Made by a program: the position numbers and the translations under genes. 32,000 nt of DNA, from NCBI RefSeq assembly GCF_000020385.1, contig NC_010814.1, positions 2,580,001-2,612,000 on the forward strand, in the 5' to 3' direction. The notes beneath the pieces were generated by a model. That model was given only the letters and a program-made list of their open reading frames with translations. It was not told the DNA's origin and searched no databases. This stretch comes from Trichlorobacter lovleyi SZ. Lineage in GTDB: Bacteria; Desulfobacterota; Desulfuromonadia; Geobacterales; Pseudopelobacteraceae. How positions within the stretch are numbered: position 1 is the first letter of the stretch; every line of letters starts with the position of its first letter. Positions 1-20,938 of this stretch are shown here, piece by piece.

Positions 1-830
1 AGGTCATCGCTAACCACATGGCAGCAGCGGGCAATCGCCTCCAGCATCCCCAGCGGCGGCTGTTCGCAAAAGCAGCCGCACAGCACCACCCTGATCTTGT
101 CCTGCTGTTGGCGCTGCCGCATGGCCAGCAGGGGCAGCACCCGCTCCAGCAGACGGTTATGCTCTCCGGGCGGCAGCAGGCTCCCCACAGCGGTCAGCAG
201 GTAGTATTCATCCAGCGCCAGCTTTCGGGGTTCACGGGATTTCAGGGCCTGCAGCTCACGCAGCAGCCTGCGATGACGGTTATAGACAGCGATTGAGCGC
301 CGCACCGCCTCCAGCTCCAGCGGTCTGCCGGTCACCTCGCTCACCACGGCGGCAAGGCCGGCGTACTCCTGCCGCAGATAGTTCTCAGCAGCGGGAGCGG
401 TACTGTTTTGCGGCAGGTAGAGCGTCCGGCAGGGGGTACTGAAATTGCGGGACCAGATGGCAGGCAGGTTACGGGCCGCATCACAGATGGAAGGGACAAT
501 CAACAGATCCAGGCTGAGATCGCCCCCCTCCACCAGATTAAAGACCTGCTTGACCACTGAACAGAGGTAGGAACCGAAATGGGCGCCACCCGCCCCGCCG
601 TTGCCGGTGGTACAGCCCAGCTTCACCGCCAGCATCCCGGCAGCATCGGCAATCTCTTCAGGCATGTAGACCTGAAAATGCCCCAGCACCCTGCCCCCCT
701 GCTCCTGCCAGAGCCGGAGCGTGGGGAAGGTTGCATCGCAGAGCAGCTCCCGGCAGGCATCAAGGATCTCTTCCAGGGATGCATCGCAGGGCAGGCTCTG
801 ACCGAAAAAGAGAGGGGCACGCAGGTCCAT
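1..830 (-). CDS. 2-hydroxyacyl-CoA dehydratase / benzoyl-CoA reductase-type subunit (HGD-D family), partial; C-terminus lies left of the window
   Basis: Absent from the ORF track because it runs off the edge. Hand translation of the minus strand from ATG 830-828 gives MDLRAPLFFGQSLPCDASLEEILDACRELL..GHFQVYMPEEIADAAGML..LLIVPSICDAARNLPAIW..RVVLCGCFCEQPPLGMLEAIARCCHVVSDD, open to position 1. There is an in-frame stop upstream at 909-911. The Cys-containing motifs resemble HgdB/FldC/BcrB-type subunits. Confidence 0.7.
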   Translation of the reverse strand, partial: MDLRAPLFFGQSLPCDASLEEILDACRELLCDATFPTLRLWQEQGGRVLGHFQVYMPEEIADAAGMLAVKLGCTTGNGGAGGAHFGSYLCSVVKQVFNLVEGGDLSLDLLIVPSICDAARNLPAIWSRNFSTPCRTLYLPQNSTAPAAENYLRQEYAGLAAVVSEVTGRPLELEAVRRSIAVYNRHRRLLRELQALKSREPRKLALDEYYLLTAVGSLLPPGEHNRLLERVLPLLAMRQRQQQDKIRVVLCGCFCEQPPLGMLEAIARCCHVVSDD

Positions 831-867
831 GGGCGAGCCATAGCACTCTTGAGCGGCAGGGTCAAAC

Positions 868-898
868 AGAAACCTGCCGGTTGCACTTTCAGGTTTCT
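868..898. promoter_or_regulatory. inverted repeat AGAAACCTG-N13-CAGGTTTCT in the divergent intergenic region
   Basis: The 9-bp arms at 868-876 and 890-898 are exact reverse complements. They lie between the divergent starts at 830 (-) and 959 (+). Candidate operator or 5'-UTR hairpin; function not demonstrable from sequence. Confidence 0.3.
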
Positions 899-958
899 TT
901 GCTATGATTCAAGCACCATTCAGGGCGTAGCACCCCACACTGTAAAGGAGAACACACC

Positions 959-1195: not shown

Positions 1196-2241
1196 CCCTG
1201 CGACAGGAAGCGATCAGGCGACTGGCAGCGGACAGCCGTCCGCTGCCGGAGACCGAGCCGTTCTCGACACGACTGTATCAGCCGGAAGACGGCTACGGGG
1301 TAACACGGCTGTTCTATGCCGTATATGGCGACGGCTATCCGGTCGACACCTTCTACCTGCCGGAACAGCTGACCGAAGAAAACCGGGCCGGCCGGATCAG
1401 GAGTGTCGTGGCCCGGACTGAGGACGGCCAGGTGGTCTCGCACATCGCCTTGTACCGCAGCTCTGCCCCCAACCCGGACCTGTATGAGTACGGCCTGGGG
1501 CTCACCCTGCCCGCCTACCGTGCCAGCCTTGCCTTTGCCCGCTGCAACAGCCTGTTGCTGTCACTGGTGGAAGATGGCGTTGTAGACTCTTTTTTTGGCG
1601 AGGCGGTCTGCAACCACATCATCACCCAGAAGCTTACCAGACAGAGCGGTGCCATAGAGACTGCGCTTGAAGCGGCACTGATGCCGGCCCGTGCCTACGA
1701 GGCAGAGCAGAGCGCAGACGGCAGGGTCGGCTGCATCATGTCATTCAAGGTCTGCCGTGACCGGATCCGGCCCCTCTGCATTCCCTCCTGTTACCACCAG
1801 GAACTGACATTCGCCATGGAGGGACTGAAGCTTGGGCGTGAACTGATTCCTGACAACGGCCAGCTCTCAGACGAGGGCTCACAGTTTGACACCGTCCGGT
1901 TTGACCATGCCGGTGTTGCCCGTTGTACCATCACCGCCCCGGGCAGAGACCTTGTCCCGCGGCTGTTGTCACTTGAAACAGAACTCCGGCAGGCCGGGTA
2001 TGCCGTGTTGCAGTGCTTTATTCCGCTGGGTGACAGCCGGGGCGCCGCAGCCGCCACCCTGCTGCAACAGGCCGGTTTTTTTCTGGGCGGTTTTCTGCCG
2101 GCCTGGTTTGGCGAGGATGGCCTGCTGATGCAAAAGCTGTTTATTGATCCCGGCTTTGAATCTCTGAAGCTGCATTCGGATCGGGCCCGCACGCTTGCCG
2201 CACTGGTGCGGAACGACTGGCAGCGCAGCCTGGAAGGATAG
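1192..2241 (+). CDS. two-domain GNAT-like acyltransferase, paralogue A
   Basis: 349 aa. N-terminal GNAT-like pattern YQPEDGYGVTRLFYAVYGDGYP..VVARTEDGQVVSHIAL..EYGLGLTLPAYR, central FGEAVCNHIITQK, C-terminal AGFFLGGFLPAWFGEDGLLMQKLF. By eye more than half of the residues are identical to the ORF at 4699-5802. Confidence 0.55.
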   Translation: MTLRQEAIRRLAADSRPLPETEPFSTRLYQPEDGYGVTRLFYAVYGDGYPVDTFYLPEQLTEENRAGRIRSVVARTEDGQVVSHIALYRSSAPNPDLYEYGLGLTLPAYRASLAFARCNSLLLSLVEDGVVDSFFGEAVCNHIITQKLTRQSGAIETALEAALMPARAYEAEQSADGRVGCIMSFKVCRDRIRPLCIPSCYHQELTFAMEGLKLGRELIPDNGQLSDEGSQFDTVRFDHAGVARCTITAPGRDLVPRLLSLETELRQAGYAVLQCFIPLGDSRGAAAATLLQQAGFFLGGFLPAWFGEDGLLMQKLFIDPGFESLKLHSDRARTLAALVRNDWQRSLEG

Positions 2242-2245
2242 TACG

Positions 2246-3526
2246 ATGGAACTGAGACTGGAGCTTGAACCGGCACGGATGCCGATGGCGGTCGCCTTTG
2301 CAGAAACTGCGGCACAGGGGGCCGGACTGGGCAGCCATGAGACCGCCATGCTGGCGCTCAGTGCCGAAGAGCTGTTCCTTGCACTCTGCAGCAGCATGCC
2401 CGGCGCTGAGCTGGTGGTCGGCTTTCTTGACCGGCGCTATGCGGTTGATCTGCTGTTCCAGATCCCCCGGCCACCGGCTGATCTGCGCATCTTCAACATC
2501 ACGGCCCGACCGGACCATGATTCCGAGGAAGGGCTGGCCGGCATGGGACTCTATCTGGCATCACGGGCCTGTGACCAGTTCAGTATCCAGCAACTAGCGT
2601 CAGGCAGCTGGAAGATCATGCTGCGCAAGGAGCGGAGCTACCCGCCCCATCCCGCTGCGCCGCTAACCGCACATGGAGAGGCCGTTGCATGGCAGATTGC
2701 CGCCGTGCCGGCACCGGATGCGGTCAAGCAGCTCTCAACACTGATCGGCAACAGCTATGCCGCCCTCCAGTTTCCCGAGACCTTCACCCCGCCGGGGCGG
2801 CTGCTGGACAAACTGGCCAGCAAGGAATACGGCGTCATCCTGGCACAGGACCCGCAGGGAGAACTGGCCGGCGGCCTGATCTGGCGTACCGGTGGCGGCA
2901 AGGTGGTGGAATGCTTCGGCCCCTACCTGCGCAGTCCTGCTACGGACGGCACCCTGGCAACAGCACTCTGCGAAAAGGTCGCCGAACAGTTCGGCCGCAG
3001 CGACCGGCTCGGCCTGGTGCTCTACGCCCCCCAGCAACCGCCCTCCACCGCCGGCTTCGAGGCTGCCGGACAGCTTGAGACACCCGGCGGCACGGTCTGG
3101 ACCGGCTACCGGATGCTGGCCGAGGAGTTTGGCGCCGACGCCTGGGTCCCGCAGGAGCTGCTGCCATTCTATCAGGAATGCTGCGCCGGCATGGTCCTGA
3201 CACGAAATATCCGTGCCTGCCAAGATGACGGCGAAACCGGCAACGGACTGACCCTGTTCGCTACCCGCATTGACCGTTCAAACGGCATGGCCCTGCTGAC
3301 GCCGCTTCTGGTGGGGCGCGATGCAGCAGACGTACTGCAGGAGCACCTGCAGCTGCTTGAGCAGGAGCAGTTTTCCGCCATCTACTGCACCCTGGACACC
3401 GGGCACCCGTTTGACGCCCTGCTTGCCCCCCACCTGTTGAGCCACGGGTTCCTGCCCCGGATTCTGGTCCCCTGGGGCGGCAGCGGTGACCTGATACAGC
3501 TGCACCGGATCAGGGGCAGCCGATGA
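2246..3526 (+). CDS. fusion: RsbW/SpoIIAB-like (HATPase-like) N-terminal module plus GNAT-like module (paralogue D)
   Basis: Start moved to ATG 2246 (MELRLELEP..), which has GGAAGGA 8 nt upstream; the 2195 start would overlap the previous gene. The N-terminal ~130 aa (AVAFAETAAQGAGL, ALSAEELFLAL, EEGLAGMGLYLASRACDQFSI) resembles anti-sigma serine-kinase folds but lacks an obvious N-box Asn. The C-terminal part repeats the paralogue architecture and ends HGFLPRILVPWGGSGDLIQLHRI. Confidence 0.45.
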   Translation: MELRLELEPARMPMAVAFAETAAQGAGLGSHETAMLALSAEELFLALCSSMPGAELVVGFLDRRYAVDLLFQIPRPPADLRIFNITARPDHDSEEGLAGMGLYLASRACDQFSIQQLASGSWKIMLRKERSYPPHPAAPLTAHGEAVAWQIAAVPAPDAVKQLSTLIGNSYAALQFPETFTPPGRLLDKLASKEYGVILAQDPQGELAGGLIWRTGGGKVVECFGPYLRSPATDGTLATALCEKVAEQFGRSDRLGLVLYAPQQPPSTAGFEAAGQLETPGGTVWTGYRMLAEEFGADAWVPQELLPFYQECCAGMVLTRNIRACQDDGETGNGLTLFATRIDRSNGMALLTPLLVGRDAADVLQEHLQLLEQEQFSAIYCTLDTGHPFDALLAPHLLSHGFLPRILVPWGGSGDLIQLHRIRGSR

Positions 3527-4692
3527 ATCTGGATACGCTGATGCCGCAGTATGTGCGGCAGTTTGAGACCTACATCCCCTCACCACCGGATGACGAGTTG
3601 AAACGGATGTTCGGGATCGAACGCCTGATCCGTCTGAACAATAACGAGAATCCGCTGGGACCACCCCCGGCAGTGGCCGCATTGCTGCGCAGCCTTGACC
3701 CGGCCCTGGTGCCCCGTTATCCCAGCGGTGACTGCTTTCACCTGCGTGAAAAGCTGGCCGCCCAGCTGGGGCTTACCCCCAAGCAGCTGCTCTTCGGCAA
3801 TGGCGCCAACGAGGTAATTGCCTTCGTGATCAAGGCCTTTTGCGAACAGGGCGACAACATCGTCACCGCCGACCGCACCTTTGCCGTCTATGAGTGGATT
3901 GCCCGTTTTTCCGGTCTGGAAGCCAGGCTTGCGCCGCTGAACGACTTCGGTTTTGATGAAGAGGCGCTGCTTGCACAGGTGGATCGCCGCACCAAGCTGG
4001 TCTTCATCTGCAACCCCAACAACCCCACCGGCAGCTGGTGGAGCCGTGACCGGTTGATCAGTTTTCTGGAACGGTTGGGCCCCGATCACCTGGTGGTACT
4101 GGACGAGGCCTATTGCGAATTCATGGATCAGCCCGACTACCCTGACGGCATCTCGCTCCTGTCCCGTTTTTCCAACCTGATCATATTCCGCACCTTCTCG
4201 AAGATGTACGGTCTGGCAGGCTTACGGATCGGCTACCTGGCAGGGGTGGAGCAGGTGGTGGACAGTATCCGCAAGACCTGCATTGTCTACTCGGTCAACA
4301 GCATTGCCCAGGTGGCGGCCCTGGCCGCCTTTGGCGATCAGGAGTTTATCCGCGCAACCCGCAGTATGGTGCGGGAAGGGCAGCAGATGCTGGCAGAGCT
4401 GTGCAGCACCCTGCAACTGCCGTTGCTGGCCGGTGACTGCAACTTTGCCATGATCAGGCTGCCGTTCAGCGACACCCTGGCCTACCGTTCGCTGATGCAA
4501 CAGGGGGTCATGATCCGCACCATGACCGCCTTCCGCTTTCCCGGCTGGATCCGGGTCAGCATCTCCACCCGTGACGAGATGCGGCTGTTCTGTGAGGCCC
4601 TGTCGCGGCTGGTTCACTCACGCACTGACCGGAACCCGCTGGCCAGGGCCTACGGCGTCAGCGGCTCCATGCCGCACATTTCGGCGGTTTAA
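3523..4692 (+). CDS. PLP-dependent class I/II aminotransferase, histidinol-phosphate/aromatic aminotransferase (HisC) family
   Basis: 389 aa with NNNENPLGPP, CNPNNPTG and the PLP-lysine motif FSKMYGLAGLRIGY. ATGA overlap with the previous gene. Confidence 0.85.
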   Translation: MNLDTLMPQYVRQFETYIPSPPDDELKRMFGIERLIRLNNNENPLGPPPAVAALLRSLDPALVPRYPSGDCFHLREKLAAQLGLTPKQLLFGNGANEVIAFVIKAFCEQGDNIVTADRTFAVYEWIARFSGLEARLAPLNDFGFDEEALLAQVDRRTKLVFICNPNNPTGSWWSRDRLISFLERLGPDHLVVLDEAYCEFMDQPDYPDGISLLSRFSNLIIFRTFSKMYGLAGLRIGYLAGVEQVVDSIRKTCIVYSVNSIAQVAALAAFGDQEFIRATRSMVREGQQMLAELCSTLQLPLLAGDCNFAMIRLPFSDTLAYRSLMQQGVMIRTMTAFRFPGWIRVSISTRDEMRLFCEALSRLVHSRTDRNPLARAYGVSGSMPHISAV

Positions 4693-4698
4693 CTCCCT

Positions 4699-5802
4699 AT
4701 GGAGATGACGCATGCCAAACAGGCCGCCCCCGCTGCAGCGGCAATGACGACCAGGGAGGCGGCGATCAGGCTGTTGGAAGGGGATACCCGGCCCTGGGCT
4801 GAGGGAGAACCGTTCACGGTACGCTTTTATCAGCCAGAGGACGGCTATGGCGTGGCCCGCCTGATCTACGCCGTGTATGGAAACGGCTACCCGATCGATA
4901 CCTTCTACATCCCTGAACAGTTGACTGAAGAAAACCGGGCCGGCCGGATCAAAAGTGTGGTTGCCCGCACCAGCAGCGGAGAGGTGATCTGCCATTTCTC
5001 GCTCCACCGCAGCTCCGCCCCCAATCCCGACATGTATGAAGCAGGCCTGGGGCTGACCCATCCGGCCTATCGAGCCTGCGGAGCCTTTGAACGCTGCTTC
5101 ACGCTGTTGTTCTCGCTGGTTGAAAACAATAGCGTCACGGCAATTTTCGGCGAGGCGGTCTGCAATCACACCATCACGCAGAAGATGGCTGAACCGGCAA
5201 AACTCGTCGAAACGGCCCTTGAAGTCGATCTGATGCCTGCCGACACCTATGCCAAAGAACGGGCTTCAGATGGCAGGGTCAGTTGTCTGATGTACTTCAG
5301 AATCGGTGCAGATCAACGGCGGCCGCTCTACATACCGGACTGTTATGCTGCTGAGATCAGGTTCATGATGGAAGGGATCACGCTTGAACGTGAGCTGCTC
5401 GGCAGCAGCGGGTCACAGCCCCTGCCTGCAGACTCAGAGCTGCAGACAGAGTCCTTCAGCTCGTCCGGCGTCTGCCGCTGCAGCATCATCAGACCGGGAC
5501 AGGATCTTGCCGGACGCCTTGCGGCACTGGAAGACGACCTTCGTTCCCGGGGGTATGCGCTGCTGGAGTGTTTTGTGCCGCTCGGCGTCCCGGAAGCGGC
5601 ATATTCCGTTGCGGCCCTGCGCACGGCCGGATTTTTTCTGGGTGGTTTTTTACCGTGCTGGTTCGGCGACGACGGCCTGTTGATGCTGAAGCTGTTCGGA
5701 ACAGCGGGCTTTGACAGCATCAAGCTCTTTTCTGAGCGGGGAAAGGCGATTATGGCGATGGTACGGGCGGACTGGGCACGGGCCTGCGGTCACGGCCGGT
5801 AG
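4699..5802 (+). CDS. two-domain GNAT-like acyltransferase, paralogue B
   Basis: Motifs YQPEDGYGVARLIYAVYGNGYP, FGEAVCNHTITQK, AGFFLGGFLPCWFGDDGLLMLKLF. The alternative start at 4744 (MTTREAAIRLL) aligns with the N-terminus of paralogue A (MTLRQEAIRRL). Confidence 0.55.
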   Translation: MEMTHAKQAAPAAAAMTTREAAIRLLEGDTRPWAEGEPFTVRFYQPEDGYGVARLIYAVYGNGYPIDTFYIPEQLTEENRAGRIKSVVARTSSGEVICHFSLHRSSAPNPDMYEAGLGLTHPAYRACGAFERCFTLLFSLVENNSVTAIFGEAVCNHTITQKMAEPAKLVETALEVDLMPADTYAKERASDGRVSCLMYFRIGADQRRPLYIPDCYAAEIRFMMEGITLERELLGSSGSQPLPADSELQTESFSSSGVCRCSIIRPGQDLAGRLAALEDDLRSRGYALLECFVPLGVPEAAYSVAALRTAGFFLGGFLPCWFGDDGLLMLKLFGTAGFDSIKLFSERGKAIMAMVRADWARACGHGR

Positions 5803-6668
5803 TCGTAGACCCCCTGCCCGCTCTTTCTCCCCAGCCGTCCCCTGGCAACATAGTCCCGCAGCAGCGGGGAGGCGGCATATTTGTGGTTGTCGATACCGTT
5901 TGCCAGGGTCTCCGTCGCCGCCAGAATCACATCAAGCCCGATCATATCGGCCAGGGCCAGCGGCCCCATCGGATGGTGGGCCCCCAGCTGCATGGCCGTA
6001 TCAATATCCTCAGCAGCGGCAATACCGTCCTGCAGCATACCGAACGCCTCGTTGATCAGGACACAAAGCAGCCGGGTGATGATAAAGCCGGGCTGGTCCT
6101 TGCTGCAGACCGACTGCTTGCCCAGGGCAGTCACCATCTGCCGGGCAATGTCGATGGTCCGGGGCGATGTCTCTGATCCGGCAATCAGCTCAACCAGCTC
6201 CATCAACGGCACCGGATTCATGAAATGCATACCGATGAACCGTTGCGGGATGCCTGAAGCGGCTCCCAGGGCGGTGATGGAGAGGCTGCTGGTACTGCTG
6301 GCCAGGATCGCCTCTTTGCCCAATACAGCTCCAAGTTCCGCAAGCAGCTCACACTTGGCTGCCATCTGCTCGGCAATCGCCTCGATCACCAGATCACAAT
6401 CAGACAGAGCAACAGGCTCATGACAATTGCTGATTCTGGCACGGATCACGGTTGGTTCCTCGCCGATCAGCCCCTTTTCATGCAGCTTGGCAAGGCTGGT
6501 CTCGATCCTCCCCGCGGCATCAGCAAGGGCTGACGCATGCCGGGCATACAGCCGTACCCTGAAACCTGCCATTGCAGCCAGTTGCGCAATGCCGGCCCCC
6601 ATACTGCCTGCCCCTGCCACACCGATCAGCGGTATCTCCCTGTTCATGACCATCTCCCGGAGCAGCAT
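5790..6668 (-). CDS. NAD-dependent 3-hydroxyacyl-CoA dehydrogenase (Hbd/FadB-like)
   Basis: Rossmann motif IGVAGAGSMGAGIAQ and HFMNPVPLMELVELI. A likelier start is ATG 6647 (MNREIP..), preceded by GGGAG. The 3' end overlaps the convergent gene by 13 nt. Confidence 0.85.
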   Translation of the reverse strand: MLLREMVMNREIPLIGVAGAGSMGAGIAQLAAMAGFRVRLYARHASALADAAGRIETSLAKLHEKGLIGEEPTVIRARISNCHEPVALSDCDLVIEAIAEQMAAKCELLAELGAVLGKEAILASSTSSLSITALGAASGIPQRFIGMHFMNPVPLMELVELIAGSETSPRTIDIARQMVTALGKQSVCSKDQPGFIITRLLCVLINEAFGMLQDGIAAAEDIDTAMQLGAHHPMGPLALADMIGLDVILAATETLANGIDNHKYAASPLLRDYVARGRLGRKSGQGVYDYRP

Positions 6669-6751
6669 TGCATTTTGGCACTGCTGCTGTATGCTGTCAG
6701 TTGCATGGCGTTTCGGCCGGCATTACCATTTCAATACCTCTGGGGAGCTCG

Positions 6752-7705
6752 ATGGACTACTCGCTCAAGAACGTCAGGATCGCCGGAACCGGTTCCGCAG
6801 TACCGGCAAGGATCGTTACCAATCAGGATATCAGCAACATGGGTGTGCCGGTCAAGGATGACTGGATCATTGAGAACCTTGGTATCCGGCAACGCCATAT
6901 CGCTGACAACGAAAGCACCACAGATCTGGCCACCCGGGCCGCCCTTGCGGCCATGGAAAACGCAGGGATCGACAGGGAAGAGATCAGCCTGATCCTGTTG
7001 GCCACCATTACCCCGGATCGCAAGGCCCCATCCACGGCCTGTCTGGTCAAACACCGGCTGGGGATGACCAACCTGGCCCCGGCCCTTGATATCTCAGCCG
7101 CCTGCTCCGGGTTCATGTACGGCCTGACCATTGCCGGCAACCTGATCCGTTCCGGGGTGCACAAGAATGCGCTGGTCATCTGTTGTGACCGGATGTCCAG
7201 CATCACTGACTGGTCACGCCGGGACTGCATTTTCTTCGGCGATGGCGCGGCAGCGGTCGTGCTGACCGAAAGCCGCTACGAAAACAGCCTGTTTGAGGCC
7301 AGGATCTTCTCAAACACCGAGTTTACCGACGGCGCAACGGTCTTTGAGGGAGACAGCGCCTTTACCATGGACGGCCATGCCGTGTACGAGGCCGCCTCCT
7401 CGGTGCTGCCCGGCTCGATTGTCTCGGTCCTGCTGCGTTGCGGCCTGAGCGAAGAGGATCTCACCTGGGTCATTCCCCACCAGCCCTCCATCAAGATCCT
7501 GAAAAAAATGGCGGAACAGCTGGGCATCCCGTTTGAGAAGGTCTGCCACAACATGGAGCGCTACGCCAACACCTCCGGGGTCTCGATTCCGCTGCTGCTG
7601 GATGAGGTCAACCGTGCCGGCAAACTGAAAAAGGATGACCTGGTCGCCTTTGCCGGTGTGGGAGCGGGTTGGACCTTCGGGGCAGCGATCTACCGCTGGC
7701 ACTGA
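6752..7705 (+). CDS. 3-oxoacyl-ACP synthase III (KAS III, FabH family), copy 2
   Basis: Start moved to ATG 6752 (MDYSLKNVRIAGTGSAVP), which has GGGGAG upstream. Catalytic triad motifs DISAACSGFMYGL, IPHQPS and YANTSGVSIP, with C-terminal GVGAGWTFGAAIYRW. Confidence 0.85.
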   Translation: MDYSLKNVRIAGTGSAVPARIVTNQDISNMGVPVKDDWIIENLGIRQRHIADNESTTDLATRAALAAMENAGIDREEISLILLATITPDRKAPSTACLVKHRLGMTNLAPALDISAACSGFMYGLTIAGNLIRSGVHKNALVICCDRMSSITDWSRRDCIFFGDGAAAVVLTESRYENSLFEARIFSNTEFTDGATVFEGDSAFTMDGHAVYEAASSVLPGSIVSVLLRCGLSEEDLTWVIPHQPSIKILKKMAEQLGIPFEKVCHNMERYANTSGVSIPLLLDEVNRAGKLKKDDLVAFAGVGAGWTFGAAIYRWH

Positions 7706-7718
7706 CAACCGTTCCAGA

Positions 7719-8057
7719 TCAGGCGGAAAGCGCTGCCAGCCCCTCATCAAGACCTTCATACAGTGCCACAAACTGGTTAAAACCGGCTATCTTGAACAGG
7801 TCTCTGACCGGCCCTGTCATGGCGCAGGCCGCAAGCCTGCCGCCACGTGCCTCAAGCAACTTGCAGATCTTCAGAATACTGCGCAATCCGGCACTGGTGA
7901 TATAGGTCAGAGCACTCATCTCCAGCAGGTAGGAGCGGCACTCCGGTTTATCCTGTCCGGCAAACCAGAGGTCAAAAAGCGGCGCAGCCCCGGAATCCAG
8001 CCGTCCGGTCAGGCTGATCACAGCGACATCACCTTCAAATCTGATTGTAGATTCCAT
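7719..8057 (-). CDS. STAS-domain protein (anti-sigma-factor antagonist family)
   Basis: 112 aa, ..VAVISLTGRLDSGAAP..LTYITSAGLRSILKICKLL.. Typical SpoIIAA/RsbV-like pattern including the conserved Ser. Confidence 0.85.
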   Translation of the reverse strand: MESTIRFEGDVAVISLTGRLDSGAAPLFDLWFAGQDKPECRSYLLEMSALTYITSAGLRSILKICKLLEARGGRLAACAMTGPVRDLFKIAGFNQFVALYEGLDEGLAALSA

Positions 8058-8090: not shown

Positions 8091-8675
8091 TCAACCGGCA
8101 ATACGACCCTTAAGCCGGGCATACTGTTCAGGCGTATTCATATCCAGTAGCACGGCCTGATCTTCAGACGGCAGCTCCAGCATCTGCCAGCCACAGTACA
8201 GGCTGCGCAACCCTCCGGCACCGTCAGCGGACAGTAGTTCCTGCTGTCGTCTCATCCGTAGCAGCGGAGGATGCCCACGCTTGCCACAGAATGTTGGAAT
8301 CACCCCATCAACAGCGGGATTCTGCTGCAGTGCGGCGAGCAGGCCGGTCAATGTTGCCGGGCTGACCAAAGGGATATCCACCGGCTGCACGAAAAAGGCA
8401 TCCGTTGCAGGTCCAAGCGCTGCAACCCCGGTCTGGATTGATGAAAACATCCCGTTTTCCGGCGCCGGATTCCGTACCAGCTCAACCGGCAGACACAACT
8501 GGACCAGAGCGGCATGATTCTGCCCGCTCACCACAACAATCTGCCCTATCCCGACGGCCTGATAGCTGCTGACGATCCGTTCAAGAACAGGCTTCCCATT
8601 CAGATCAAGCAGCGCCTTGTCACTGCCCATCCGGCTGGAAAAACCGGCGGCCAGAATAATGGCAGCGCTTTTCAC
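8091..8675 (-). CDS. MobA/MocA-like molybdenum cofactor nucleotidyltransferase
   Basis: N-terminal AAIILAAGFSSRMGSDKALLDLNGKPVLERIV (NTP_transf_3-like). ATGA overlap with the xdhC-like gene. Confidence 0.8.
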   Translation of the reverse strand: MKSAAIILAAGFSSRMGSDKALLDLNGKPVLERIVSSYQAVGIGQIVVVSGQNHAALVQLCLPVELVRNPAPENGMFSSIQTGVAALGPATDAFFVQPVDIPLVSPATLTGLLAALQQNPAVDGVIPTFCGKRGHPPLLRMRRQQELLSADGAGGLRSLYCGWQMLELPSEDQAVLLDMNTPEQYARLKGRIAG

Positions 8676-9595
8676 CCTTTACTCCGCCTGAAGGCAATCA
8701 GTTCAGCCAGGATACTGACCGCAATTTCTGCCGGGGTTTCCGCGCCAATGACCAGCCCCACCGGGCAATGCACCCGTTCCAGATTGGCATCGCTGACACC
8801 GGTAGCACGCAGTTGATTAAACAGCTCTTCCCGTTTGCGTTTGCTGCCCACCATGCCGATATACCCGGCAGCGCTTGCCAGGGCCTGTTCCAGCACCACC
8901 CGGTCATGCCGGTGGCCATAGGTAACAATCAGCACGGACGTAGCCGGTGTAATCTGTTGACACACCAGACAGTCGTTAAACCCTGTAACCAGAACGGTTT
9001 TAACAGGCGCAGCAAAGCGGCCCGAGTCAAGCAGCTCAGCCCGGTCATCAAGCACGCTGACCTTGAAACCTGCAGTTATTGCCATAGGTGCCAGAGCCTG
9101 GGCAATATGCCCTGCCCCGCAGATCAGCAGCCCCGGAGCAGGCTGCAAGGGAATGCTGTAGCAATGCAGGGCATCACCAGCCGGTTGATCAACAGACCAG
9201 CAGGCCTGGCCGTTATCCCTTAAAACAACCAGCAGGTTGCAGCCCCTGCCCGCTTCCAGACCCGCTGCTGCTGCAGTAAAGACAGGGACCACATCAGGAG
9301 ACAGCCGTACCAGCAGCAGGGTAAGGCTGCCACCACAGGGCATACCATCCTGCTCCGGCAGTAACTGAAATGAACGGACAACGCCATGACCGTCCTGCTG
9401 CAGTTGACCCAGGCTGGCAACAACCTGCTGTTCCAGGCTGCCGCCCCCCACGGTGCCACAGCAGCTGCCATCCCGACGGAGCAACAGCATGGCCCCTACC
9501 CCACGGGGAGCAGAGCCTCGCCGTGCAACAATCAGGGCCAGTGCGCCTGCCCCGGTTGCTGCCACCTCGTTCAGTATCTGCAACGCCTCAGACAT
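8672..9595 (-). CDS. XdhC/CoxI-family molybdoenzyme maturation factor
   Basis: 307 aa. N-terminal XdhC-like segment (ALALIVARRGSAPRGVGAMLL..GTVGGGSLE) plus a Rossmann-like LLICGAGHIAQALAPMAITAGFKVSVLDDR. Confidence 0.8.
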   Translation of the reverse strand: MSEALQILNEVAATGAGALALIVARRGSAPRGVGAMLLLRRDGSCCGTVGGGSLEQQVVASLGQLQQDGHGVVRSFQLLPEQDGMPCGGSLTLLLVRLSPDVVPVFTAAAAGLEAGRGCNLLVVLRDNGQACWSVDQPAGDALHCYSIPLQPAPGLLICGAGHIAQALAPMAITAGFKVSVLDDRAELLDSGRFAAPVKTVLVTGFNDCLVCQQITPATSVLIVTYGHRHDRVVLEQALASAAGYIGMVGSKRKREELFNQLRATGVSDANLERVHCPVGLVIGAETPAEIAVSILAELIAFRRSKG

Positions 9596-10742
9596 TTTGC
9601 TTCCTTACCAGCAGCACCAGCCCGGCTGCCAACAGCAGCGCACCGGCAGCCGCACCAAACAGAAGCGGATACCCGCCCTGGGGTAGCAGCCAGCCACCAG
9701 CCAGCGGCCCCAGAAAAAAGCCGCACTGCAGCATCAGCAGGCCAAGGTTCTGATTAAGCCCCCGTGTTTCAGGCTGTGACAGATCAAAGATCAGGGCATT
9801 CAAAAGCGGCATCACCACGCCCCAACCGATACCGCACAGCACCGCCAGTGCCAGCAGGATGGTAACATTGGCTGCAGCCAGGATCAAACCGGTGCCTGCT
9901 GCAGACAGTACCAGAAAGACCATGTTCATGCGTCGCTTGTCAAAGCGGTCAAACAGGCTGCCCCCAAACAGGCGGACCAGCATCATCATCACCGTGGCAA
10001 CCGTAAAAAACAGGCCGCTGTTGGCCAGCCCGGCTGCCCGGCCAAACCCCTTTAGATAGAAGAAGGTGGCAGCATACCCGGCGTACAGCAGCACCGTGGC
10101 GGCAAACAGCAGCAACAGGCTCCGGTCGGCCAGGCTGTTTTTGATCCCGGCAAAGGATGTCCCGCTGGCCGGTTCCTGTTCCTGGGGAAAACGGGGCAGC
10201 AGCCAGAGCAGCGCCCCGGCCAGCAGGGCCAGCAGGGCCGACCAGCGGATCACTCCACCCAGGGCTGCCGGCGCTATCTGAAACAGATCAAACAGGAGCG
10301 GCACCACGGCGTAGGGCACCAGCCGCACCAGCGAGATCCAGCCAAAGGCGCGGCCACTCATCTCGCGGGGGATGCAGAGCACAAACAGCGGCATGATTGC
10401 CGCCACCACACAGATAAAGCCGGCCCCCTGCAGCAGTCGGGCCAGCGTAAAGGCCAACTCACTGCTACAGGCTCCCTCCATGATCAGCGCAGCTGCAAGG
10501 ATCAGGGAACCGGCCAGCAACCAGCGCCGGGCAGTACGGGCGGTAATCAGCGGGGTAATAAACGGTTGTACAATCAGGGCGGCCAGGGCATCAGCCCCCA
10601 GGATGAAACCGGCTGAGGCAGCAGGCATGCCCAAAGAGGTCAGGTATTCCTGCAGGGGAAAGAAGATGGCAACAATGGTTGAAACAGCCAGAAACTGGCT
10701 GCAGAGCAGCAGAAAGGGGCGGGTCAAGAGCGGGTTTGCCAT
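9588..10742 (-). CDS. MFS transporter
   Basis: 384 aa, almost entirely hydrophobic with roughly 12 helix-length segments. Overlaps both neighbours (8 nt and 1 nt). Confidence 0.8.
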   Translation of the reverse strand: MANPLLTRPFLLLCSQFLAVSTIVAIFFPLQEYLTSLGMPAASAGFILGADALAALIVQPFITPLITARTARRWLLAGSLILAAALIMEGACSSELAFTLARLLQGAGFICVVAAIMPLFVLCIPREMSGRAFGWISLVRLVPYAVVPLLFDLFQIAPAALGGVIRWSALLALLAGALLWLLPRFPQEQEPASGTSFAGIKNSLADRSLLLLFAATVLLYAGYAATFFYLKGFGRAAGLANSGLFFTVATVMMMLVRLFGGSLFDRFDKRRMNMVFLVLSAAGTGLILAAANVTILLALAVLCGIGWGVVMPLLNALIFDLSQPETRGLNQNLGLLMLQCGFFLGPLAGGWLLPQGGYPLLFGAAAGALLLAAGLVLLVRKQNV

Positions 10743-11572
10743 CAGGCAACCAGCCTGAACAACAGGTTGCCTGCCACAGTCCGGCGATAGTCGGCAGTGG
10801 CCCGGATATCGTCAATCGGCTGCACCGCCTGCTGCACCAGAGCTGCTGCGTCCTGCAGGGTTGCTTCCGACAACGGCTTATTGATCAGGACCGCTTCAGC
10901 CCCGGTACAACGCAGCACGGTCGGGCCAACACTGCCCCAGGCAAAGCGGGCCTCAAGCACGGTGCCGTCATCAGCCAGCCGCAGCATGGCCGCCAGTGAG
11001 GCCACGGCAATGGCCAGGGATTTACGGCGGCCCACCTTTTCAAAACACTGGATGTTCCACTGCTGTGCAGGTGGCAGGATAATCCGGCTGATGAGCTCCC
11101 CCGGTTGCAGCAGGGTCCGGCGGGGACCGCTGATGAACGCATCAATCGCCACGATCCGACTGCCTGTTGCAGAACGCAGCTCAAGCCGGGCATCCAGCAG
11201 ATACAGGGCCGGCAGGGAATCAGCAGCCGGTGAGGCGGTCACGATATTACCGCCGATACTGGCCATGTTCCTGATAGCCGGGCCGCCCACGGTTGAGGCA
11301 GCCTGGGTCAGCAGGGGGTAGCGTTCTTTCAGCAGAGGATTGCGCACGATGGAACCAAACGTGACAGCAGCGCCGATACTGACGCTGTTGTCCGGCAGTT
11401 CTTCAATCATTGATAGCTCGGCAAGCCTCTCCAAAACGATGATTGACTGATGTTCCTGCGACCCATGACGCTGCGCCACCAGCAGGTCAGTCCCGCCGGC
11501 CATGATCCTGGTATCCGGCTGCTGATTCAGCAGGTTAAACAGCTCTTCAACAGTATTTGGAAAAAGAAGCAT
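10742..11572 (-). CDS. FAD-binding (medium) subunit of a xanthine dehydrogenase/CO dehydrogenase-family molybdenum hydroxylase
   Basis: IMAGGTDLLV and ASIGGNIVTASPAADS motifs. The track start at 11590 is a GTG inside the upstream gene, so ATG 11572 (MLLFPNTVEEL) is preferred. Only two Cys residues, so no extra Fe-S insertion. Confidence 0.85.
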   Translation of the reverse strand: MLLFPNTVEELFNLLNQQPDTRIMAGGTDLLVAQRHGSQEHQSIIVLERLAELSMIEELPDNSVSIGAAVTFGSIVRNPLLKERYPLLTQAASTVGGPAIRNMASIGGNIVTASPAADSLPALYLLDARLELRSATGSRIVAIDAFISGPRRTLLQPGELISRIILPPAQQWNIQCFEKVGRRKSLAIAVASLAAMLRLADDGTVLEARFAWGSVGPTVLRCTGAEAVLINKPLSEATLQDAAALVQQAVQPIDDIRATADYRRTVAGNLLFRLVA

Positions 11573-11579
11573 TAAGCTA

Positions 11580-12071
11580 TCACCCTTCACCCTTCACCCT
11601 TGCAGCTTTCTCAACCGCATCCACAATCCTGACATAGCCGGTGCAGCGGCAGAGATTGCCGGACAACCCTTCCTTGATCTGTTCCCGGCTCAGCGGTTCA
11701 CCCTGCCGCAGCAGCGCCAGCGAGGCCATCTCCATGCCGGGAATACAGTAGCCGCACTGCACCGCCCCTTCTTCAGCAAAGGCGGCCATCAGGGTGCGCC
11801 CCTCGTCAGTCTGCTGCAGCGCCTCAACCGTTTCCACCTGCCGTCCCTCAAGCTGGGCCGCCAGCATCAGGCAGGCCAGTTTCGGCAGACCATCCACCAG
11901 GATGGTGCAGGCCCCGCATTCACCGGTGCCGCAGCCTTCCTTGCTGCCGGTCAGACCCAGATCTTCACGCAGCAGATCGATCACCCGGCGCTCGGCAACG
12001 GTCTCAAGCACCGTTGCCTGCCCGTTCAGGGTAAAACGGATGGTCCGGTTATGCTGTAACATGGCTGTCAA
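11580..12071 (-). CDS. (2Fe-2S)-binding small subunit of a molybdenum hydroxylase
   Basis: GCGTGECGACTILVDG, CGYCIPG and NLCRCTGY cluster motifs. Confidence 0.9.
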   Translation of the reverse strand: MTAMLQHNRTIRFTLNGQATVLETVAERRVIDLLREDLGLTGSKEGCGTGECGACTILVDGLPKLACLMLAAQLEGRQVETVEALQQTDEGRTLMAAFAEEGAVQCGYCIPGMEMASLALLRQGEPLSREQIKEGLSGNLCRCTGYVRIVDAVEKAARVKGEG

Positions 12072-12291
12072 TGTAGGCGATCATCTCACCGACCGTCTTG
12101 GTCGCCACGGCATCCTCTTTGCTGATCGTGAGACCAAAGGCCTCCTCGGTCAGCACCAACAGTTCCATCATTGCCAGGGAATCCAGACCGAGGTCGCTGC
12201 GCAGATCAGCAGCAGGCACAATCTTCTCCACAGCCACCTTGCCCTTGCCTGCCTTCTGGATCAATCCCTGTACCTTCTCAAATCTCGTCAT
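12049..12291 (-). CDS. acyl carrier protein (ACP-2)
   Basis: 80 aa with DLGLDSLAMMELL motif. ATGA overlap with the upstream GNAT-like gene. Confidence 0.8.
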   Translation of the reverse strand: MTRFEKVQGLIQKAGKGKVAVEKIVPAADLRSDLGLDSLAMMELLVLTEEAFGLTISKEDAVATKTVGEMIAYIDSHVTA

Positions 12292-13319
12292 TCCTGTTCT
12301 CCTTTCCTTTGTACCGCTTCACGATCCGAGCGGATGTCATGCAGCATCTTTCTGGCAACGCCAGTGTAGAGCTTGATACCGTCATAATCCGGCTCTTTGC
12401 CGAACAGCTGTTGCAGCATCACGCCGTCATTGCCAAACCAGCGGGGGTACAGCCCCCCGATAAAGAACCCCCGTTGCCGCAGCTGAGCCACAGCCTCGCT
12501 GATGCAGGGCAGCGCCGTTGAAACAATCAGCTGGAGACAGACTGTTTTCCGTTCCCGGCTTTTGACCAGAATCCGGTCCAGAAACATCCCCCAGTCTTCT
12601 CCGATTACACTGACGGAAAAACGCCAGGTTCCGGCCTCTTCAAACCAGTGGTCAGTGGCGACCGTCTCCCCATGCCGGGGCAGTGGCGAAGTACCGGGCA
12701 GCAAAATACGGGGACGCAGCCGTTCATAGATCCCGTGCAAAAAGGCACGGTACTGTTCAGGCAGGTAACAGGGGCCTTGCGGATCAGACAGTTCATACAA
12801 CTGCACCACACAGGCCACCCGTTCCGTTTCAGGGCGATGCTCGGAGAAACTGGCGCCATCAAGCAGGTCAAGCGCCAGGCCGCACTCCTGAAACCCCAGC
12901 TTGACCGCCCCCACCTGGGTAAAATAGTGATGGCAGACCGCTTCTCCAATGATGCCGTCAGACTGCAGACCGGGCAGATTTCCCGGCTGCAGGTAATGCT
13001 GCATCAGTCCCCAGCCCAGTTCATCCTTGCCGCCACCGGGCACAACCACCAGATTTCCCCCTTCCCAGAGGTTCGGGTTGGGGGCGCATTTAAAGAACGA
13101 GACATAGCCGATTGCGTTCCCTTTGCTGTCAAACGCAAGTGAGGCGGCAAGCCGTCCGGCCCTGATCTCTTCCATGACCAGGGCGGCATGGTAGACATAC
13201 GGTACCGGAAAGCCGTCGCCATAGACCGATCTGAAGACCGTGGCCACCTCTGCTGCATTGGAAGCGTCTACGGGTTGTATGGTGTAGCCTGTTTCAGGCA
13301 TGACGTCCTTTCCTGCCAT
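12288..13319 (-). CDS. two-domain GNAT-like acyltransferase, paralogue C
   Basis: 343 aa, divergent from A and B but with the same landmarks: VATVFRSVYGDGFPVPY, IIGEAVCHHYFTQV, RGFFIGGLYPRWFGNDGVMLQQLF. Flanked on both sides by ACP genes with 1-nt and 4-nt overlaps. Confidence 0.5.
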   Translation of the reverse strand: MAGKDVMPETGYTIQPVDASNAAEVATVFRSVYGDGFPVPYVYHAALVMEEIRAGRLAASLAFDSKGNAIGYVSFFKCAPNPNLWEGGNLVVVPGGGKDELGWGLMQHYLQPGNLPGLQSDGIIGEAVCHHYFTQVGAVKLGFQECGLALDLLDGASFSEHRPETERVACVVQLYELSDPQGPCYLPEQYRAFLHGIYERLRPRILLPGTSPLPRHGETVATDHWFEEAGTWRFSVSVIGEDWGMFLDRILVKSRERKTVCLQLIVSTALPCISEAVAQLRQRGFFIGGLYPRWFGNDGVMLQQLFGKEPDYDGIKLYTGVARKMLHDIRSDREAVQRKGEQE

Positions 13320-13587: not shown

Positions 13588-14589
13588 TCACTCCTCAACG
13601 GAGTGCCAACGCACGAGAGCCGATCCCCAACTGACGCCGCCACCGAATCCGGTCAGTACCAGCCGGTCGCCATGCCTGATCCGTCCCGCATGCAGGACGT
13701 TATGCAGAGCGATCGGGATTGAGGCGGCCGAGGTATTGCCGCACTGCTCGAGATCTATCACGATTTTATCCATCGGCAGGTCCAGACGCCCGGCTGCAGC
13801 CTCAATAATCCGGCGATTGGCCTGGTGGGGGATGAACAGATCAATATCCTCCAATGACAGTCCTGCCTTCTGTATGACCCGCATGGCCGAATTGCCCAGG
13901 ACCCGCATGGCAAACATAAAGACCTGCTGTCCATCCATCCGTACATACTGCAACTGTTCGGCCAGGGCCTCAGGGGAAGCCGGAAGCCGGCTGCCGCCTG
14001 CCGGAATGACAATCGCCCCATGTTCAGAACCGATGCTGCCCGCATCAGTGGCCAGCAGCCCGTAGCCGTCAGGCACAGCACCGAGCACCACGGCACCGGC
14101 ACCGTCACCGAACAGGATCGCGCTGTCACAGTCCGCAGGGCTGGCAACCTGTGACAGCACCTCGGCGCCGATCAGCAGCACCTTGGGGCAGAACCCGCAG
14201 GAGACGGCATGGCACGCAACCACCAGCCCGTAGACAAACCCCGAGCAGGCAGCAGACAGATCAAAACAGGCTGCCGCTGGTATACCCAGCGCCCCCTGAA
14301 CAATGGCTGCCGTGGCAGGCATCCGGTAATCAGCGGTGGAGGTGGCCATGATCACCATACCGATCTCATCCGGTGTGGTTCCTGAGGCCGTAAGTGCCTG
14401 ACGGGCCGCAGCAATGGCCAGATCAGAACAGGCCTGTCCGGGAGCAACAATCCGGCGGTTATGAATGCCGGTCCGCTCATAGATCCAATCGGTTGTGACC
14501 CCGAAGTGCTCTGCCAGTTCCTGATTGCTCAAAACATTGTCCGGCAGATAGGCGCCGGTCCCCAGAATGCCTGCCCCGATCGTTATCAT
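13588..14589 (-). CDS. 3-oxoacyl-ACP synthase III (KAS III, FabH family), copy 1
   Basis: 333 aa: GTGAYLPDNVLSNQEL, DLSAACSGFVYGL, IPHQANRRII, CGNTSAASIP, GFGGGVSWGSALVRW. Confidence 0.9.
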   Translation of the reverse strand: MITIGAGILGTGAYLPDNVLSNQELAEHFGVTTDWIYERTGIHNRRIVAPGQACSDLAIAAARQALTASGTTPDEIGMVIMATSTADYRMPATAAIVQGALGIPAAACFDLSAACSGFVYGLVVACHAVSCGFCPKVLLIGAEVLSQVASPADCDSAILFGDGAGAVVLGAVPDGYGLLATDAGSIGSEHGAIVIPAGGSRLPASPEALAEQLQYVRMDGQQVFMFAMRVLGNSAMRVIQKAGLSLEDIDLFIPHQANRRIIEAAAGRLDLPMDKIVIDLEQCGNTSAASIPIALHNVLHAGRIRHGDRLVLTGFGGGVSWGSALVRWHSVEE

Positions 14590-17187: not shown

Positions 17188-18294
17188 TCAGACCTCGATT
17201 CTGAATTCTGCACCATCGGCGGTGTTACGCACGCTGATGCAGCCCCCCATATTCTTCTCAATAATGGTTTTGGCCAGAAACAGACCGACCCCGGTCCCTT
17301 TGCCGAGCGCCTTGGTGGTAAAGAACGGGTCAAAAATCTTGGCCATGATCTCCTCGTTGATGCCGCCGCCGTTGTCGCTGATGGTCACCATGGCCCGCCC
17401 TTCTTCGGACCAGGAACGCACAACAATCCGGGGGTCGCCGGGCTGCCGCTCCTGCAGGGCATCCTTGGCATTCAGAATCAGGTTCATCAGCACCTGACCG
17501 AATTCATTGGGATAACCGTTGATCTGCGGTTCACCGCCAGTTTCAACCTCCAGACTGATGCCGCTGTTTTTCAGGCTCTCTTCCAGAATCTGCACCGTGT
17601 CGGCAATGACCTGTTCCACCTTGAACAGACTCTTTTCCTTGTCCGGGACGTTGTAGTTCTGGAAGACGGTAATGGTCTGGGACAGGTGCTGCAGGACCCC
17701 CATGGCAGAGGAGATATTGGCATCCAGCAGCTCCTTGCTCAGTTCGCCGTGGCGGTGGGAAAAACCGATTTCCTGCACCTTGACCCCGACCACATTGAGG
17801 GGCTGACGCCACTGATGGGCGATGTTGCCCAGCATCTCTCCCATGGCCGCCATGCGGCTCTGCTGGATCAGCAGCTGCTGTTTTTCCCGCAGCTCCTCCA
17901 TGGCCTGCTGGCGTGCTGTGGTCTCTGTCTGCAGCTCAGCATAGGTCCGCTGCAGCTGGACGTTCTGCTGCTGCAGTTCAGCGGCCCGCTCCGCCAGGGC
18001 CGTGTTCAGCCTTTCAACCTCCCTGGCCGAGCTGTGCAGCGGCCGGGCAACCCAAAACCAGATAAACGGCGCACTGATCAGCACCAGCAGCACCGAATCG
18101 GCAAAGTTGTCAACAAAGGCGATCGAGGTATGGAAAATCAGCGGCAGGACGAACATCACCAGCGCCTCGGCAAGAAACAGCACCACCATCAGGCTTACGA
18201 TCAGGCGTATGGGTGATACAACCCTGGGCGGTTCACTGCCGATCTCCCTTCCTGTTGCTGACAGCTCCATGGCCTCACCTCGCTTTCTTCCCAT
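17188..18294 (-). CDS. membrane sensor histidine kinase
   Basis: Two N-terminal hydrophobic helices and a coiled segment. H-box NIAHQWRQPLN, N-box VLMNLILNAKDAL, G-boxes DNGGGIN and GTGVGLFLAK. Alternative start at 18270. Confidence 0.85.
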   Translation of the reverse strand: MGRKRGEAMELSATGREIGSEPPRVVSPIRLIVSLMVVLFLAEALVMFVLPLIFHTSIAFVDNFADSVLLVLISAPFIWFWVARPLHSSAREVERLNTALAERAAELQQQNVQLQRTYAELQTETTARQQAMEELREKQQLLIQQSRMAAMGEMLGNIAHQWRQPLNVVGVKVQEIGFSHRHGELSKELLDANISSAMGVLQHLSQTITVFQNYNVPDKEKSLFKVEQVIADTVQILEESLKNSGISLEVETGGEPQINGYPNEFGQVLMNLILNAKDALQERQPGDPRIVVRSWSEEGRAMVTISDNGGGINEEIMAKIFDPFFTTKALGKGTGVGLFLAKTIIEKNMGGCISVRNTADGAEFRIEV

Positions 18295-20937: not shown

Positions 20938-20938
20938 A

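Follow-up and report, generated by a model that had tools for sequence, protein, structure and literature searches.

A gene at 2246-3526 on the plus strand of a 32,000-nucleotide stretch of the Trichlorobacter lovleyi SZ genome (NC_010814.1, positions 2,580,001 to 2,612,000; hereafter the window, in whose coordinates positions are given) codes for a protein of 426 amino acids that NCBI labels 'hypothetical protein'. This protein, referred to below as the target protein, is encoded in a plus-strand operon together with a carrier protein, two members of a protein family that we call GG2 and a HisC-like aminotransferase, and the same window encodes two STAS-domain proteins and the subunits of a molybdopterin (Mo) enzyme (Table 1). 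An original prediction, made from the sequence alone, proposed that the target protein is a fusion of an anti-sigma-kinase-like module with a GNAT-like enzyme, and that binding of a STAS protein to the module could switch the enzyme on or off. We have followed up this proposal by profile and structural comparison and by a survey of gene neighbourhoods in other genomes. The homology on which it was built is confirmed, and the STAS switch itself is partly supported, by homology and gene context.

The N-terminal domain is homologous to anti-sigma kinases

The start of the target protein was placed at the ATG at 2246, within an open reading frame (ORF) running from 2195 to 3526; the MEL start that is common to all homologues supports this choice. 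The target sequence alone gave no match in Pfam, NCBIfam or PDB sequences; its homology becomes visible only through its relatives and through structure. An AlphaFold model built from a 20-row alignment of close homologues (Geobacteraceae, 56-96% identity) reached a pLDDT of 82.5 and a pTM of 0.77, and divides the protein into an N-terminal domain (residues 1-130), a disordered linker (133-146) and two alpha/beta halves (150-426). The elements of the N-domain (E2-6, H9-25, H30-50, E55-62, E66-73, H94-108, E111-116 and E122-129; E, strand; H, helix) make up an alpha/beta sandwich of the Bergerat type, a fold of about 130-145 residues. The top PDB match of the model in Foldseek was SpoIIAB (1til_E, E 2.4e-6, TM-score 0.74 on the target), followed by RsbW (6m36/6m37, 0.81-0.86 on the target), UsfX (8ih8) and other anti-sigma kinases; normalised on the target, the matches to SpoIIAB, RsbW and UsfX span TM-scores of 0.71-0.86.

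Sequence profiles lead to the same result. When 43 diverse members of the family were scanned singly, 27 of them matched PF13581 (HATPase_c_2), the best at 8e-6. In hhalign comparisons with a reference composed of standalone RsbW-like kinases from related loci and of B. subtilis SpoIIAB and RsbW, the N-domain of the wider family scored a probability of 98.6% (E 9e-16), that of the window's subfamily 96.4% (E 1.1e-9, 124 columns) and the window sequence on its own 85.5%. Residues 1-135 are therefore a true homologue of the RsbW/SpoIIAB anti-sigma kinases. The original prediction had recognised this layout in the first 130 or so residues, and had named profile and structural similarity to HATPase-like folds as its test; both kinds of similarity were found, and the motifs that it quoted (MELRLEL, AVAFAETAAQGAGL, ALSAEELFLAL and EEGLAGMGLYLASRACDQFSI) are all present in the translation.

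The fusion is not a peculiarity of one genome. An exhaustive profile search recovered 366 representatives at 50% identity, and as nearly all of them are 420-460 residues long and matched from end to end, the fusion constitutes a stable family; a word-indexed search started from the diverse alignment hardly reached beyond close relatives. Two variants were noted: in P0088 the target homologue and the aminotransferase form a single protein of 813 residues, and in P0167 an FHA phosphopeptide-binding domain stands ahead of the RsbW-like domain. Both are further hints of regulation at the protein level. In Pelotomaculum propionicicum (locus L033) a different protein of 482 residues, combining HATPase_c_2 with a weak GNAT match, is encoded just upstream of the target homologue (3927-5375 of that locus, minus strand), so that fusions of RsbW-like and GNAT domains may have arisen more than once or may have diversified.

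The ATP site is degenerate throughout the family

Known GHKL ATPases require the Asn of the N-box, which binds Mg, the Asp of the G1 box, which binds adenine, and Gly-rich G1 and G2 loops. Profile alignment places the family motif LAxEE(I/L/V)FxYL onto the kinase N-box LAxEEALVN. The pair of Glu residues is retained in the target (E41, E42), and the column of the Asn is occupied by A46, or by Y, H or F in the relatives; in a tabulation of about 85 family members the Asn is always missing, irrespective of the gene neighbourhood. The G1 box (DxGxG) has no counterpart in the family, its columns reading IPRPP with no conserved Asp or Gly, and the GGLG of G2, which aligns with A/E-M-G-L, is reduced to E(M/T)GL in the family and to GMGL in the target, one Gly remaining. 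The standalone kinases encoded at the same loci, by contrast, retain EEALVN, DxGxPF and GGLG. A further motif, FN(L/I)T, is near-invariant in the family (FNIT in the target, with N84) and falls, in the alignment, on the PF(D/N) located just after G1 of the standalone kinases. These motifs of the N-domain do not differ between loci with and loci without STAS, kinase or PP2C genes.

Because the N-box Asn and G1, together with the greater part of G2, have gone family-wide while the neighbouring kinases keep them, it is well supported that the N-domain, as judged from its residues, would be a pseudokinase that has lost its Mg-ATP site. The original prediction had suggested as much from the missing Asn of the target, and the degeneracy now extends to the whole family. 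The N-domain lacks the defining catalytic features, so that its classification as an anti-sigma kinase would be inappropriate.

The C-terminal body is GNAT-like in its predicted fold

In the model, the C-terminal body is GNAT-like in fold, as had been proposed. Foldseek matched it to Pat (phosphinothricin acetyltransferase), SpeG, AAC(6')-Ib and RimL with TM-scores of about 0.55-0.64 and E values of 1e-5 to 1e-4 over 163-186 aligned columns. Pfam GNAT models matched neither the target nor the three GG2 paralogues of the window, which are without a match in NCBIfam as well, and GG2 homologues in relatives gave weak matches to Acetyltransf_1 or Acetyltransf_7 at most. The body of the target (about 280-290 residues) is related to the GG2 family, an unfused family of some 350 residues, with an hhalign probability of 97.8% (E 1e-12, 277 columns); the target protein can thus be described as an RsbW-like domain joined to a GG2 body. 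From these similarities we propose that the body is a putative GNAT-like acyl- or aminoacyl-transferase, which may work with the translationally coupled HisC-like aminotransferase.

The target gene belongs to a conserved cluster

We scanned one genome per species with a 12-sequence alignment as query and obtained 80 loci, the ORFs of which were labelled with hidden Markov models (HMMs) built from seeds of the window and of locus L006. The hosts include Desulfomonile, Syntrophales, Syntrophorhabdus, Smithella, Desulfobacterales, Pelotomaculum, Desulfosporosinus, Sporomusa and Clostridium thailandense. The usual order of genes is target, aminotransferase, the three subunits (L/S/M) of the Mo enzyme, a transporter of the major facilitator superfamily (MFS), GG2, STAS, in some loci a standalone RsbW, and finally a gene for a protein of about 650 residues, which Pfam identifies as a sensor phosphatase of dCache/HAMP/SpoIIE (PP2C) architecture. 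A homologue with 32% identity (P0037) illustrates this arrangement as a single-strand operon, in which a truncated PP2C gene, STAS, a standalone HATPase_c_2 kinase and the target homologue are followed by the aminotransferase, the large, 2Fe-2S and FAD subunits of the Mo enzyme, MFS and GG2.

The aminotransferase is adjacent to the target homologue at all 80 loci, including all 32 of those that have 9 kb or more of flanking sequence in each direction (the full-flank subset, given second hereafter). The other families are less constant: the Mo large subunit occurs at 57 loci (29 of 32), MFS at 52 (23 of 32), GG2 at 48 (25 of 32), STAS at 35 (17 of 32), PP2C at 27 (13 of 32) and the standalone RsbW, with canonical kinase motifs, at 15 (8 of 32). 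The set of Mo-enzyme accessory, Mo-enzyme subunit and MFS genes found at 8091-12071 of the window is part of the cluster at 49-57 of the 80 loci. An ORF of the sigma-70 family was present in at most 2 of 87 loci.

No other recurrent neighbour family emerged, the clustered unlabelled ORFs forming a mixed group of REC, histidine kinase, HD-GYP and cyclase proteins joined by shared domains. An adenylating enzyme with a carrier protein was considered as part of a wider core and rejected, since 6 loci have an AMP-binding gene and 2 a carrier protein; in the Geobacteraceae the cluster does add a branch of adenylase, carrier protein, KAS III and 3-hydroxyacyl-CoA dehydrogenase. Some Desulfobacterales (L022, L026 and L034) encode, immediately upstream of the target homologue, a coiled-coil protein of about 340 residues in which motifs like those of class III nucleotidyl cyclases were seen by eye, and L001-L003 have, upstream and on the strand opposite to the target homologue, a gene of the HD-GYP type (HD_5). 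The cluster may thus also be subject to second-messenger signalling.

The STAS proteins are members of one orthogroup tied to the cluster

The STAS proteins of the cluster, the two of the window included, form one orthogroup that spans genomes from two phyla and is characterised by the sequence (D/E)YISSAGLR...VF(D/E)(I/V)SGF. The position equivalent to Ser58 of SpoIIAA is invariant in 40 cluster STAS proteins, all of which contain (Y)I(S/T)SAGLR, and both window proteins carry a Ser in that column, in agreement with the conserved Ser that had been predicted for the first of them. NCBI records of T. lovleyi, which contain exact and 96%-identical copies of proteins of the window, label the 112-residue protein, STAS 1, 'STAS domain-containing protein'. 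The STAS genes are nearly all on the strand of the target, and two of them abut its start codon. In 20 of the 35 loci with a STAS gene, as in the window, the N-domain of the target homologue is the only RsbW-like domain near that gene. As to co-occurrence of the fusion with STAS genes, the survey gave a divided answer: the two are found together at the 35 loci in two phyla, often with PP2C and RsbW, so that their association is no chance feature of the window, while about half of the loci have no STAS gene nearby.

The gene for STAS 1 had been assigned to the 3' end of a minus-strand biosynthetic operon, and here the original prediction does not hold. The run of minus-strand genes that has STAS 1 as its last member is not a biosynthetic operon; its products are the small and FAD subunits of a Mo enzyme together with an MFS transporter, XdhC and a protein like MobA. 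Furthermore, the close relatives L001, L088 and L089 have their STAS gene flanked by FabH on one side and a GG2 paralogue on the other; the genes of the Mo operon are absent within the flank of L001, and in L088 and L089 the Mo operon is located 1-2 kb past the STAS gene, with a GG2 paralogue and one or two further genes intervening. This position ties the STAS gene to the target cluster and not to the minus-strand operon. In L087 and L004 the STAS gene is absent together with the FabH/Hbd block.

Other genes of the window

Coordinates of the features are collected in Table 1. The carrier-protein gene and GG2 paralogue 1 overlap, stop on start, and L087-L089 have a PP-binding gene at the corresponding place. 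Relatives carry a gene for an AMP-binding adenylase ahead of that for the carrier protein; no remnant of such a gene was found at the start of the window. The HGD-D family gene that runs off the window start also has a counterpart adjoining the cluster in L089.

Table 1. Features of the window. Positions are those of the 32,000-nucleotide stretch; MFS and Mo as in the text; HK, histidine kinase.
Feature	Position	Strand	Basis and remarks
HGD-D-type dehydratase/reductase subunit (2-hydroxyacyl-CoA dehydratase / benzoyl-CoA-reductase type)	3-908	-	PF06050 1.5e-39; 5' part, runs off window start
Phosphopantetheine carrier protein, 78 aa	959-1195	+	PF00550 4.4e-5; head of plus-strand operon
GG2 paralogue 1, 349 aa	1192-2241	+	No Pfam match; 59% identical to 4699-5802
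Target protein, 426 aa	2246-3526	+	Start at ATG 2246
N-terminal domain, aa 1-135	2246..2650	+	RsbW/SpoIIAB-type HATPase_c_2 fold, ATP site degenerate
Linker, aa 133-146, low confidence	2642..2683	+	pLDDT <50; length variable in alignment
GNAT-like enzyme body (predicted), aa 147-426	2684..3526	+	Two alpha/beta halves; Foldseek, hhalign
HisC-like class I/II aminotransferase	3523-4692	+	PF00155 2e-53, TIGR01141 9e-90; start overlaps target stop
GG2 paralogue 2	4699-5802	+	GG2 family HMM/homology
3-Hydroxyacyl-CoA dehydrogenase	5790-6668	-	PF02737, PF00725
KAS III (FabH-like) enzyme	6752-7705	+	PF08541, PF08545, NF006829 7.6e-97; convergent with STAS 1
STAS 1, 112 aa, YITSAGLR	7719-8057	-	PF01740 2.8e-13; TIGR00377 56.3 bits, above cut-off
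MobA-like protein	8091-8675	-	Pfam, translation, HMM labelling
XdhC	8672-9595	-	Pfam, translation, HMM labelling
MFS transporter	9588-10742	-	Pfam, translation, HMM labelling
FAD subunit, xanthine-dehydrogenase-family enzyme	10742-11590	-	Pfam, translation, HMM labelling
2Fe-2S subunit, xanthine-dehydrogenase-family enzyme	11580-12071	-	Pfam, translation, HMM labelling
GG2 paralogue 3	12288-13319	-	GG2 HMM match; no Pfam match
Second FabH	13588-14589	-	
Mo large subunit	23369-25657	-	PF02738, PF20256, PF01315
Response regulator (receiver)	25661-26041	-	PF00072
Histidine kinase (HK)	26038-27090	-	PF00512, PF02518
STAS 2, 111 aa, YISSAGLR	27335-27670	-	PF01740 3e-20
EF-hand protein	27703-28044	-	PF13202 5.6e-13; directly upstream of STAS 2

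About 11 kb, occupied by other genes, lie between the gene for the large subunit of the Mo enzyme and those for its small and FAD subunits. The gene for STAS 2 lies upstream of those for the histidine kinase, the response regulator and the Mo large subunit, the kinase/regulator pair (25661-27090) sitting between STAS 2 and the large subunit, where the original prediction had described it as the neighbour of a paralogous STAS gene; a kinase/regulator pair is likewise attached to the Mo operon in L088. Further minus-strand genes code for a DUF5122 propeller and an extra kinase/regulator pair. From about 18000 to 23300 the GC content falls to 47-53%, compared with about 60%, and the genes of this stretch code for a cystatin-like protein, an NTP_transf_8 nucleotidyltransferase, DUF2007, a cytidine-deaminase-like protein and a HEPN RiboL-PSP protein; the stretch has the look of an island, foreign or of defence type, that was inserted among the Mo-enzyme genes. 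Rfam yielded no RNA family at gathering score, with chance-level matches only, in 1-1300. Among the major ORFs of the window we found no PP2C phosphatase, no sigma factor, in keeping with what had been stated, and no standalone RsbW.

Proposed mechanism and its alternatives

Since STAS, PP2C and RsbW partners stand beside the target gene in many anaerobes and a sigma factor does not, the switch that they form probably acts directly on a metabolic enzyme and not on transcription. We propose that the pseudokinase domain keeps only the partner-binding role of its ancestor and would serve as a built-in receptor for the STAS protein of the cluster. Unphosphorylated STAS would bind to this domain and thereby alter the activity of the attached enzyme body, whereas phosphorylated STAS would be excluded, possibly, as a speculation, through repulsion by the conserved Glu-Glu pair of the former catalytic site. 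Many relatives encode next to STAS a canonical RsbW-like kinase and a membrane-bound dCache-HAMP-PP2C phosphatase, and these two would set its phosphorylation state, so that an extracellular ligand could be coupled to enzyme activity with no need of a sigma factor. In the T. lovleyi window the system would consist of the receptor-enzyme and two STAS paralogues, with a kinase and a phosphatase that would have to be encoded elsewhere or be dispensable. Three parts of this scheme are inferred, namely that STAS contacts the N-domain, that this contact depends on phosphorylation and that it affects catalysis, and we give the scheme in which the fused domain reads STAS phosphorylation about an even chance of being correct.

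The presence of a true kinase beside the pseudokinase raises another arrangement, in which the two would form a heterodimer, the enzyme would be tethered and inhibited by the real kinase, and STAS would release it through the kinase subunit. Both domains are homologous, and the N-terminal strand and the helices that make the RsbW/SpoIIAB dimer interface, known from structures 1L0O and 1TH8, are common to both; in several loci, for example L006, the standalone kinase gene lies directly between STAS and either the target or the PP2C gene. However, a mechanism that needs this kinase is hard to reconcile with its occurrence at 15 of 80 loci and with its absence from the window, and we hold the heterodimer to be very improbable.

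Several observations weigh against a STAS receptor of the kind that we propose. At 45 of the 80 loci there is no STAS gene within 10 kb; these include well-covered loci and entire lineages (e.g. Syntrophorhabdaceae), and the N-domain is equally conserved there; it must therefore work without a neighbouring STAS protein or with one encoded elsewhere. In a mirror-tree comparison, in which aminotransferase distances were also compared, the distance matrix of STAS correlated with that of the N-domain (r 0.71) no better than with that of the enzyme body (r 0.77), and the partial correlation of STAS with the N-domain given the body was 0.11. A kinase or phosphatase that could set the state of STAS was not found in the window. 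As regards the enzyme, the acyl-CoA pyrophosphate motif (Q/R-x-x-G-x-G/A) was not seen by eye in its canonical form in the family consensus. Finally, 12 of the 27 loci with PP2C have no standalone kinase nearby, which is awkward if the fused domain is inactive.

The first two of these points would fit an N-domain that is a mere dimerisation or scaffold module, RsbW and SpoIIAB being obligate dimers, or a regulatory module that binds a small molecule, the STAS, PP2C and RsbW proteins then regulating the MFS transporter, the Mo enzyme or a distant sigma factor. Such a role would account for equal conservation of the domain where STAS is not nearby and for the lack of N-domain-specific co-variation with STAS, and the pTM of 0.77, reached despite the disordered linker, suggests that in the model the N-domain may pack stably on the body. 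It leaves unexplained why one STAS orthogroup was recruited in two phyla, often as the sole partner of an RsbW-like domain, and why the Glu-Glu pair and the lid motif FN(L/I)T stayed near-invariant after the ATP site was lost; moreover, no sigma factor is linked to the cluster. We regard a scaffold or small-molecule module as unlikely, although it is the alternative to which we give most weight.

The shortage of standalone kinases at PP2C loci calls for another kinase, and the N-domain could itself be a working, atypical serine kinase that phosphorylates STAS and is opposed by PP2C, with the fused enzyme as the analogue of a sequestered sigma factor. The general-base Glu (E42) and the invariant Asn (N84) are retained, and JGI labels one member of the family 'anti-sigma regulatory factor (Ser/Thr protein kinase)'. 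We nevertheless think an active kinase improbable: every member examined is without the N-box Asn, the Asp of G1 and the Gly-rich loops of G1 and G2, the standalone kinases next door keep all features of the ATP site, and, as many contigs stop just past the PP2C gene, the missing kinases may be an artefact of truncation.

Comparison with known systems

The N-domain has the same fold as, and detectable sequence homology to, the kinases of the Bacillus RsbW/RsbV and SpoIIAB/SpoIIAA modules (6M36/6M37, 1TH8, 1TIL, 1L0O). As in these modules, the STAS proteins of the cluster keep the phosphorylatable Ser, and relatives encode a canonical kinase and a PP2C phosphatase. The RsbW-like domain of the target family differs in that it has neither the N-box Asn nor G1 and has lost most of G2, is fused to an enzyme and has no sigma factor associated with it.

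Partner switches with outputs other than a sigma factor include HsbR/HsbA-HsbD and SiaABCD of Pseudomonas, in which the target is a diguanylate cyclase. SypE/SypA of Vibrio fischeri and BtrU/V/W of Bordetella are also non-sigma partner switches (PMC8256260). In all four systems, as in our proposal, phosphorylation of a STAS-type or analogous protein controls a non-sigma target; they differ from it in that the kinase is active, the output carries no RsbW-like domain, and neither a GNAT-like enzyme nor a metabolic cluster is involved. A closer parallel for direct action on an enzyme is All4160 of Anabaena, a fusion of STAS with a sugar transferase, which, together with the phosphatase HenR and the kinase Alr3423, has been proposed to be a case of partner switching acting directly on a biosynthetic enzyme (bioRxiv 10.64898/2026.04.08.717354). 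All4160 resembles the target family in that one component of the switch is fused to an enzyme and there is no sigma output. The class of enzyme, GNAT-like in the target family, and the organisms differ, and the architecture is a mirror image: in Anabaena STAS is fused and the kinases are free, whereas in the target family the inactive kinase-like domain is fused and STAS is free.

Allosteric gating of a GNAT body by an N-terminal sensor domain occurs in the mycobacterial cAMP-dependent protein acetyltransferase MtPat/Rv0998. In MtPat the sensor binds a small molecule, through a cyclic-nucleotide-binding domain, and responds to it, whereas the N-domain of the target is a degenerate GHKL domain that would be expected to bind a protein. 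Our literature searches turned up neither a HATPase_c_2-GNAT fusion nor this gene cluster. To our knowledge, partner switching is textbook sigma-factor control with a handful of cases that act on enzymes, and in none of them is an anti-sigma-kinase fold fused to the enzyme as a pseudokinase.

Pathway context and significance

The closest solved relative of the Mo large subunit is the alpha subunit of 4-hydroxybenzoyl-CoA reductase (1rm6_A, 1.2e-91), the aminotransferase is closest to HisC and to phenylalanine aminotransferases, and a gene of the HGD-D/benzoyl-CoA-reductase type abuts the cluster. Many of the host lineages are anaerobic degraders of aromatic compounds. Together, these similarities suggest that the cluster may serve CoA-ester or aromatic amino-acid metabolism, and the resemblance of the Mo enzyme to 4-hydroxybenzoyl-CoA reductase makes the cluster a lead into anaerobic aromatic or amino-acid metabolism.

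Our analysis thus draws attention to a gene cluster, conserved but unannotated, that syntrophs and Desulfomonile share with Geobacteraceae and Negativicutes/Clostridia and that includes two families, the target family and the GG2 family of about 350 residues, neither of which matches any Pfam model convincingly. In its most general form, our proposal is that a dead anti-sigma kinase domain has become a cis-acting STAS receptor in a widespread class of enzymes of anaerobes, and that the dCache-HAMP-PP2C, RsbW and STAS set gates post-translationally, in the absence of a sigma factor, a GNAT-like transferase whose partners are an aminotransferase and a Mo enzyme resembling 4-hydroxybenzoyl-CoA reductase; we advance this generalisation tentatively, as somewhat less probable than the switch on which it builds. 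If true, it would represent a new type of output for partner switching, and would provide a simple system of one STAS protein, one domain and one enzyme for the study of how STAS phosphorylation is read. It would also mean that a ligand outside the cell has direct control of the flux in a CoA-ester or aromatic pathway that is as yet uncharacterised.

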